Sequence record: NC_018855.1
DNA: 64,000 nt
From: Escherichia phage HX01
Reading direction: 5' to 3' (one strand)
Below are positions 168-846 of the stretch, in pieces. Below the pieces are notes generated by a model, which was not told the origin of the DNA, searched no databases, and worked only from the letters and a program-made list of their open reading frames with translations. The position numbers and the translations under genes were made by a program. Positions within the stretch are counted from its first letter, which is position 1. Every line of letters begins with the position of its first letter.

Positions 168-512
168 ATGAAAGGCAATATTTATCTGGTAGTTCATGAC
201 TTAACGTTTTATTTTAACGAACGTGAAACAGTTATTTCCGATAGGTTAATTAATTCGCTGTATCAGCATGCTGATTATGTCTATTTTCAAAATGAATTCG
301 GACATTGGAAGTTTCTTAAAAACCGTTCCGGGTTAACTAGTTTTGAATACTTTGACCGTAAAGACCTTTTAAACGAAATTCCATTACAACATCGGTTCCA
401 GAAACGCGAATCACTATACTATTGTCGTCATATACCAAATGCTGAATGTGTTGATGAAGTAATTAATCTATGGCGTAGACGTAGAGAACAAATTGATGAT
501 ATGTCAAAATAA
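168..512 (+). CDS. hypothetical protein in tRNA region
   Basis: ORF track 120..512; start moved to ATG 168 after SD GAGG, since upstream part overlaps tRNA-Arg. Confidence 0.5.
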   Translation: MKGNIYLVVHDLTFYFNERETVISDRLINSLYQHADYVYFQNEFGHWKFLKNRSGLTSFEYFDRKDLLNEIPLQHRFQKRESLYYCRHIPNAECVDEVINLWRRRREQIDDMSK

Positions 513-680
513 GAAGCCGGGTCGCTACCGGCAAGTCGTCGGACTGATGTTCCCTGAGTAAGGACTGGTCTTAATAAATCTTTATGATTTGTTAATATCC
601 CCTTACATCACAGCAGAAACGGCGCAAAGAATTATCGATTCGAGGAAATATCTTTGCCGTAAGCCGAGTAGCGTTTTTGA

Positions 681-771
681 CGGAACGTTCGGATATGGTC
701 GAGATATGGCCTTTTAAAAATATTGAGTAGCGTCAACTGCTTAATAACCGGGTTCGAATCCCGGCGTTTCG
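681..771 (+). ncRNA. candidate tRNA-like small stable RNA
   Basis: Canonical T-arm CCGGG-TTCGAAT-CCCGG at 748-764 and possible acceptor pairing CGGAACG/CGTTTCG; D-arm not canonical; T4 encodes stable RNAs next to its tRNAs. Confidence 0.3.
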
Positions 772-815
772 TACAAACACTTGCCTTAGTAGGTGGAAAC
801 CCCGACAAGGTATAT

Positions 816-846
816 AGCCCCTTCCGAAAGGTTGGGGCTTTTTTGT
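816..846 (+). terminator. rho-independent terminator
   Basis: GC stem AGCCCC..GGGGCT followed by TTTTTT. Confidence 0.7.

Follow-up and report, generated by a model that had tools for sequence, protein, structure and literature searches.

What does a T4-like phage keep between the last reading frame that follows its transfer RNA (tRNA) genes and the end of the transcript? The question is raised by a stretch of 64,000 nucleotides (nt) of Escherichia phage HX01 (NC_018855.1), hereafter the window, where the region examined, 513-815, had been read from its letters only as a structured non-coding segment. The original prediction went on to propose that, T4 being known to encode stable RNAs beside its tRNA cluster, this segment might hold such RNAs. 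This is what we find. The region is the distal end of a tRNA transcription unit, in which orthologues of the T4 RNAs D and C precede a trailer hairpin and a terminator. RNA C is shaped like a tRNA, and comparison of its homologues predicts that two of its loops pair with each other as a kissing complex.

The identity of the locus is settled by comparison with T4. Its genome (NC_000866) annotates, directly 3′ of tRNA-Arg, 'rnaD, small stable RNA, species 2 RNA' (119 nt), then 'rnaC, species 1 RNA' (139 nt). Positions 509-812 of the window align collinearly with this rnaD-rnaC-trailer block, without rearrangement, and the proposal of T4-type stable RNAs beside the tRNA cluster was thus well founded. 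The limits first given to the region delineated something real, and were slightly displaced: the first RNA starts at about 509 and the conserved block extends to 812. Identity to T4 is 82.4% for rnaD (509-629), 98.6% for rnaC (635-773; 137 of 139 positions) and 94.6% for the 3′ trailer. Both phages have the same operon, in the order tRNA-Arg ... rnaD, rnaC, trailer, terminator, with the same 5-nt spacer, AAUUA, between the two RNAs. Because 509-812 is homologous to annotated RNAs, the feature was already known in kind. Identification is a rediscovery; what is new here is a structural model backed by covariation, together with a distribution map. We have next to no doubt about the identity and anatomy of both RNAs, and we hold the whole explanation (identity, anatomy, tRNA-type processing and a mimic role) to be the best one, with a confidence that is high and a little lower. 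The features are these:

509-629, plus strand: rnaD (RNA D, species 2 RNA) homologue, from alignment to T4 rnaD; 3′ end uncertain
516-532, plus strand: rnaD hairpin 1, a stem of 5 base pairs (bp) with the invariant 7-nt loop GUCGCUA, from the fold and a covarying outer pair
535-626, plus strand: rnaD rod, in which GUCGUCG (535-541) pairs with CGGCG-C-A (620-626), from RNAalifold and the minimum free energy fold
635-773, plus strand: rnaC (RNA C, species 1 RNA) homologue, tRNA-shaped, from alignment to T4 and the covariance model
636-642, plus strand: 5′ strand of the rnaC acceptor-like stem, CGAUUCG, pairing with 765-771 (CGUUUCG)
643-712, plus strand: rnaC central domain, a substitute for the D arm, closed by helix P2 (AGG, 643-645, with CCU, 710-712), from covariation
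677-682, plus strand: kissing loop A, UUGACG, apical loop of the rnaC central domain and complement of 731-736
721-746, plus strand: rnaC anticodon-arm analogue, with kissing loop B, CGUCAA (731-736), on a stem of 10 bp
748-764, plus strand: rnaC T arm, CCGGG-UUCGAAU-CCCGG, read from the sequence
765-776, plus strand: rnaC acceptor 3′ strand (765-771), then the conserved tail UACAA
777-811, plus strand: conserved 3′ trailer hairpin ACACUUGCC..GGUGGAAACCCCGACAAGGU, from the fold; nearly invariant in 17 distinct sequences
816-844, plus strand: intrinsic terminator of the tRNA/stable-RNA unit, with stem AGCCCC..CC, loop GAAA and six U

T4 differs in some details. A single nucleotide separates its tRNA-Arg from rnaD, where the window has an open reading frame (ORF) of 114 amino acids (aa). 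The apical hairpin of rnaD has another sequence; its 3′ end reads GGCGCACCA in T4 and GGCGCAAAG here, so that CC(A) is encoded only in T4. T4 also has an extra short hairpin between trailer and terminator, absent here.

The first reading had noticed the lack of any ORF and the presence of several stem-loops. Indeed, no ORF of 60 aa or more is found in the region, which has only mechanical frames of 22-58 aa with TTG or GTG starts, and all three segments fold more stably than their dinucleotide shuffles, with z-scores of -3.5 for the rnaD part (509-629), -4.55 for the rnaC part (635-773) and -3.1 for trailer and terminator (770-850). A covariance-model search had been suggested as a check. With the model of its own family rnaC scores 165.7 bits (E=1e-38), as the sole copy in the window; in Rfam 15 there is no family for RNA C or RNA D, and nothing reaches threshold in the region. 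Over 500-860 the Rfam tRNA model (RF00005) has no match, though E values as high as 10 were admitted; tRNA-Sec comes closest, below threshold, with 16.6 bits for a cut-off of 47, its match covering only the T arm and the acceptor strands. ARAGORN calls tRNA-Arg as the only tRNA of the window, and none in the region.

Both RNAs have a long history. Known as stable RNAs since the 1970s, they are still said to have no known function in papers of 2010, 2022 and 2025. In T4, RNAC and RNAD are discrete transcripts, identified by RNA sequencing and northern blot; sequencing places them among late-accumulating RNAs, a class validated by northern blot (PMC9697503). The precursor of the tRNA cluster, of about 1.75 kilobases, comprises eight tRNAs together with species II and species I RNA, and stops beyond the latter (PMC2330249). 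In the T4-like phage BW1, one single-nucleotide polymorphism (SNP) in rnaD was found in all three lines adapted to ECOR34; it was the sole change common to the three, and the virulence score used by the authors increased from 0.17 to 0.98 (PMC12685909). This convergent mutation suggests that the RNAs can affect host-specific fitness.

What kind of molecule is RNA C? Pattern scans, a covariance model and blastn searches with three different starting points supplied its homologues. A model-based alignment of 30 distinct sequences resulted, from about nine genera (Tequatro-, Mosig-, Karam-, Moon-, Gelderland-, Kanagawa-, Winkler-, Marfa- and Jiaodavirus) and one unclassified Straboviridae phage; the counts for rnaC refer to this set. 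Proposed partners can pair in 93.2% of cells, against 35-42% when they are slid by one to three columns. Changes on both sides are seen in 24 of the 38 pairs, and the observed values were matched by none of 500 shuffles. An independent alignment made with MAFFT agrees, with 92.5% paired and 17 double-changed pairs. The fold is a four-way junction that joins an acceptor-like stem, a central hairpin of about 67 nt, an anticodon-arm analogue and a T arm. P2 closes the central hairpin, which is long and irregular; an A-rich linker then leads to the anticodon-arm analogue, itself separated from the T arm by 1 nt. Thus, the canonical T arm recognized at the outset (CCGGG-TTCGAAT-CCCGG, 748-764) is part of rnaC, as is the acceptor pairing deemed possible, that of 636-642 with 765-771.

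RNA C is tRNA-shaped: its acceptor-like stem and canonical T arm are well supported. In the window the seven positions of the stem form five Watson-Crick pairs and two U.U mismatches; these mismatches are kept in 28 of the 30 sequences, and give U-A and A-U in the Jiaodavirus copies. At the third pair, 22 sequences have G-C and 8 have A-U; at the sixth, 28 have C-G and 2 have U-A. Covariation extends to all three pairs of P2, to all five of the apical stem (672-676 with 683-687) and to all ten of the anticodon-arm analogue, each of which changes on both sides somewhere in the alignment. In the T arm, 16 sequences have U-A at the third pair, 10 have G-C and 2 have C-G. The 3′ tail is UACAA in most genera, and UCCAA, hence an encoded CCA, in the Marfavirus and Jiaodavirus copies. 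Throughout, the length stays within 138-142 nt despite a central domain whose sequence is specific to the lineage and which exists in two unrelated-looking versions, a T4 type and a Melville type. A mutual-information scan of rnaC was uninformative, being dominated by the split between these two types.

A further tRNA-like trait can be proposed at the elbow. When GG 708-709 is set against U55 and C56 of the T loop, the first pair is G.U in 27 sequences and C-G in 3, the second G-C in all 30. Exactly the three sequences with G at T-loop position 55 have CG instead of GG before P2: those of CIP9, LC53 and a CIP9-like contig, with T loops UGCAUGC or UGCAUCC. These three sequences, on which the case rests, are suggestive of a contact like that made by G18/G19 in tRNA. 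An antiparallel pairing of GG with the T loop fails in the variant sequences; the tRNA-like register, G-U55 and G-C56, holds.

RNA C thus has several traits of the canonical tRNA (RF00005): a seven-position acceptor stem stacked beside a 5-bp T stem with loop UUCGAAU, a four-way junction, perhaps the contact just described, and a tRNA-like spacing within arrays. It differs from it by its 139 nt, by the lack of a D arm and of a 7-nt anticodon loop, by a variable region reduced to 1 nt, and in being recognized by neither ARAGORN nor the Rfam tRNA model. A shorter fold, reminiscent of tRNA-Sec, in which an internal CGGAACG would pair with the 3′ strand, was discarded: the CGGAACG partner is missing in the second central-domain type and mismatched in the Karam-type copies. 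ARAGORN does report a 95-nt 'tRNA-Met' inside one rnaC homologue (IMG/VR contig L045, 8491-8585, minus strand), with CGGAACG as its 5′ acceptor strand. This is the very pairing behind the weak tRNA-Sec match of the window, and it is not kept in other lineages.

Two loops of RNA C are linked by a conserved complementarity. CGUCAA (731-736), at the tip of the anticodon-arm analogue, is the exact complement of UUGACG (677-682), at the tip of the central domain, and the six pairs can form in each of the 30 sequences. The motifs differ between lineages, as follows (apical loop, then anticodon-arm loop):

Most genera, including the window: UUGACG and CGUCAA, 22 sequences
Marfavirus: UUGGCG and CGCCAA, 6 sequences
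Jiaodavirus: UUGCAG and CUGCAA, 2 sequences, with 138 records by blastn

One position of this helix takes three forms, A-U (22 sequences), G-C (6) and C-G (2), and another takes two, C-G (28) and A-U (2); the loop of the anticodon arm changes only together with the apical loop. Both types of central domain, moreover, carry a UUGACG-type loop on a 5-bp stem. Since both flanking stems covary, both hairpins form, and the complementarity is from loop to loop. And since the loops are complementary and have changed together in other lineages, they are predicted to pair as a kissing complex. The 6-nt loop CGUCAA is not an anticodon loop. The constant length of 138-142 nt is what a geometric constraint would lead one to expect, for example a contact within one molecule; the loops may also pair between molecules.

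Pairing over all six bases of each loop is reminiscent of the kissing complexes TAR-TAR* and ColE1 RNA I/RNA II. ROOL and GOLLD RNAs, which are phage-associated and often found near tRNA genes, form assemblies with intermolecular kissing contacts. RNA C resembles neither in sequence or size, and has both its loops in one 139-nt molecule. Besides, just 5′ of the 3′ strand of P2, the Melville-type copies have UGACG and the Marfavirus copies UUGGC, each repeating its own kissing motif. This may be an alternative partner for the loop of the anticodon arm, or a coincidence.

How widespread are these RNAs, and where do they reside? By blastn, 805 phage records match the region, 678 of them over at least 80% of its length, and a further 138, of the Jiaodavirus type, match rnaC. 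In T4- and Mosig-type genomes rnaC is found 3′ of rnaD, at the end of the operon. In other genera it sits inside tRNA arrays, within a few bases of tRNA genes; this location within or beside tRNA genes is that of the Karam-, Moon-, Gelderland-, Kanagawa-, Winkler- and Jiaodavirus genomes:

Pet-CM3-4, Melville, VPA32 and EcL8g: rnaC between tRNA-Trp and tRNA-Gly
Moon and CIP9: rnaC 3′ of tRNA-Met
LC53: rnaC between tRNA-Phe and tRNA-Trp
JD18: rnaC directly 3′ of tRNA-Pro

With filters off, the covariance model gave no rnaC hit for Aeromonas phage 44RR2.8t and Acinetobacter phage 133, searched in their tRNA arrays, nor for the stretch of KP15 that was examined. In IMG/VR, a strict pattern built on the CGUCAA loop returned 29 loci, all chance matches in coding DNA. 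A loose two-anchor pattern, run against IMG/VR and bacterial genomes, gave, among the matches listed, nearly nothing but chance hits; once filtered for a T arm, these listed matches left copies from T4-type phages only, and none from bacterial genomes. The metagenome scan added one Marfavirus-like contig; three other tRNA-like sequences were unrelated. GenBank records place 'hypothetical protein' genes over the rnaC homologues of F48 (L051, 1216-1353), EI (L071, 416-553), NM4.3 (L068, 342-515) and Ursula (L069, 366-476). They are probably mis-annotations, because the homologues have no reading frame in common. Of the roughly 900 related genomes, most leave rnaC and rnaD unannotated or mis-annotate them as small proteins.

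RNA D is another matter altogether: it is not tRNA-like. Its alignment holds 18 distinct sequences, all from Tequatro-, Mosig-, Dhaka- and Gaprivervirus-type genomes. Pairing is possible in 96.8% of cells, against 50% at most when partners are slid, and six pairs show changes on both sides. From 5′ to 3′, the fold comprises a tail, hairpin 1, the long-range stem, a 4-bp helix and a conserved internal loop; the inner rod then continues as a covarying helix of 5-6 bp, topped by a variable AU-rich apical hairpin. At the outer pair of hairpin 1, 14 sequences have A-U, 3 have G-C and 1 has G.U; in the 4-bp helix, one pair is U-A in 9 and A-U in 7. The long-range stem (535-541 with 620-626) is invariant, so that covariation speaks neither for nor against it. 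The 5′ module (509-560) and the 3′ module (603-626) are nearly identical to those of T4, while the apical hairpin varies. We also note that the loop GUCGCUA (521-527) is complementary over 5-6 bases to UAGCG(U), a motif that occurs twice in T4-type rnaC, here at 668-673 and 727-732. This could be due to chance, or reflect a contact between RNA D and RNA C.

What might be the use of these molecules? Their location invites the following scenario, of which the first part, the maturation by tRNA enzymes, is likely. Both RNAs would be cut from the polycistronic tRNA precursor by the host enzymes that mature tRNAs: RNA C would owe its 5′ end to RNase P, exonucleolytic trimming of the 3′ end would come next, and CCA would be present or added in some lineages. 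The acceptor/T-arm module would be the handle of RNA C for RNase P, for 3′ trimming and for protection, making the molecule processable and stable. The second part is more tentative, and we would rather bet against it than for it: RNA C would be a mimic or decoy, a compact non-decoding tRNA look-alike acting in trans by occupying a factor that recognizes the tRNA acceptor, T arm or elbow. It could not decode, because its loop would be engaged in the kissing contact. Its benefit would be accessory and host-dependent, not essential, which fits the loss of rnaC in some genera and the SNP of BW1 rnaD.

Stated in full, this conjecture, speculative as it is, makes RNA C a distinct, uncatalogued class of phage tRNA mimic, produced and trimmed as tRNAs are within the tRNA arrays of at least nine T4-type genera, its 'anticodon' loop permanently sequestered by a conserved 6-bp kissing contact, and acting in trans on a host factor that binds the tRNA acceptor or elbow, so as to influence host range. 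If this were true, the kissing contact would lock one molecule into a closed tRNA-shaped body, or else link molecules into dimers or rings, and the host target might be, for example, a tRNA-directed defence nuclease or a maturation enzyme. The working idea of an acceptor/T-arm mimic handled by tRNA enzymes has precedents in transfer-messenger RNA (tmRNA), in bacterial YrlA and Y RNAs, and in the tRNA-like ends of plant viruses. RNA C differs from the first by the lack of a tag frame, of G3.U70 and of a pseudoknot series, from YrlA by the lack of a Ro-binding stem, and from the last in that it does not form a genome's 3′ terminus. The model provides experimental handles: the tRNA-shaped fold, natural variants of the kissing loops, CCA in two lineages and the location in tRNA arrays.

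Several observations weigh against this picture. Each variant of the kissing loops is confined to one close lineage, so that the support for the contact amounts to two evolutionary events. Two lineages depart from the canonical T loop (they have UGCAUSC), and strict tRNA mimicry is therefore not universal. RNA D of the window is without the CC(A) found at the 3′ end of its T4 counterpart. rnaC is precisely missing in Dhakavirus IME08 and is replaced by an ORF in MN01, both of which retain rnaD, trailer and terminator; it is thus dispensable in some relatives. Finally, our search of the literature, outside of which the primary papers of the 1970s-80s remained, found no functional study of rnaC or rnaD.

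Other explanations have to be set against the same facts. RNA C might be a working adaptor, bearing CCA, aminoacylated and active on the ribosome or in some other transfer of aminoacyl groups, as are tmRNA and the tRNA-like ends of plant viruses. The acceptor stem, the T arm and the possible elbow contact would then make sense, as would the Marfavirus and Jiaodavirus copies, where U-CCA is encoded right after the stem, which in Jiaodavirus is fully Watson-Crick. We find this unlikely, if conceivable for the lineages that encode CCA. Most lineages, that of the window included, encode UACAA and keep the two U.U mismatches; alanyl-tRNA synthetase requires G.U at 3:70, where rnaC has A-U or G-C; there is no conserved reading frame or tag, and ARAGORN calls no tmRNA; and the anticodon-arm analogue would be taken up by the kissing contact. 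C1-G72 with U73 is not known to fit any E. coli identity set, which we also count against an adaptor. The pair at 3:70, the missing frame and the silence of ARAGORN led us to reject a tmRNA reading of rnaC as such.

It is hardly more probable, and perhaps a little less so, that the region acts purely in cis, as a set of processing signals, a 3′ stabilizer and a terminator, the RNAs being functionless by-products. The position of the block in T4-type genomes, at the 3′ end of the operon and just 5′ of the terminator, would agree with this, and so would the independent conservation of the trailer hairpin. In at least six genera, however, rnaC is in the middle of an array, far from a terminator, and what it has kept, its length and a long-range complementarity between loops, is needless for a processing spacer. 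Both RNAs, furthermore, accumulate in T4 (PMC9697503), and a SNP in rnaD was adaptive (PMC12685909).

That rnaC be a decayed tRNA gene, a pseudo-tRNA with an insertion and free from selection, is very improbable. Its 5′ and 3′ parts are tRNA-like, its best Rfam match is only the sub-threshold one to tRNA-Sec, and it has been lost in some relatives, all of which decay would explain; decay would not leave 98.6% identity between T4 and a Mosigvirus although the ORFs flanking the RNA block differ, nor 24 compensatory pairs, covarying loops and a constant length, with homologues (rnaC alone or with rnaD) in 805 records plus the 138 of Jiaodavirus type. The least credible alternative is that the region encodes small proteins, as the records of F48, EI, NM4.3 and Ursula have it and as mechanical ORFs of 42-58 aa might allow, for no frame is open in all rnaC homologues, substitutions in stems are compensatory, the 42-aa ORF of the window straddles the rnaD/rnaC boundary, and neither T4 nor the closest relative has a coding sequence annotated there.

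To come back to the distal end of the tRNA unit, the trailer (777-811, also written ACACUUGCC..GGUGGAACCCCGACAAGG) persists in IME08, where rnaC is gone, and in MN01, where an ORF replaces it. As it persists without rnaC, the trailer is a separate element, which may be a site of processing. According to the older T4 literature, host endonucleases cleave the precursor 3′ of species 1, and the trailer is a candidate for the place of this cut. In most relatives an additional short hairpin, UUGCCGCAAGGC or UUACCCUAGGUUAA, lies between trailer and terminator; the window and MN01 are without it. The strong terminator which the original prediction placed at the end of the region does exist, just beyond that end, at 816-844. 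It is a GC-rich hairpin directly before a run of U, as judged from the fold, and it is kept in relatives; its stem contains a 2x2 internal mismatch, which hid it from a strict consensus scan. One base past the U run, at 846-853, comes TATAAATA, found at the same place in most of the 17 related sequences, and which we take to be the T4 late-promoter consensus.

The surroundings of the region identify the phage. Over bases 1-1600 the window has 99.9% identity with Escherichia phage vB_EcoM-pEK20 and 99.8% with JS09, both of them Mosigvirus JS09, T4-type Straboviridae; the window belongs to a JS09-like Mosigvirus. Its neighbouring features are:

1-66: tRNA with anticodon CAU, its 5′ end cut off
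73-149: tRNA-Arg (UCU)
168-512: ORF of 114 aa, function not known, phrog_3355
889-1515: next ORF downstream

The ORF at 168-512 has a weak match to DUF2654 and occupies the gap between tRNA-Arg and rnaD that in T4 is 1 base long; its TAA stop is shared with the beginning of the rnaD homologue, at about 509. The truncated tRNA has its acceptor stem and D arm in common with tRNA-Ile of T4, and the annotation of pEK20 makes it a tRNA-Met. It is probably an AUA-reading tRNA-Ile with a modified C34.

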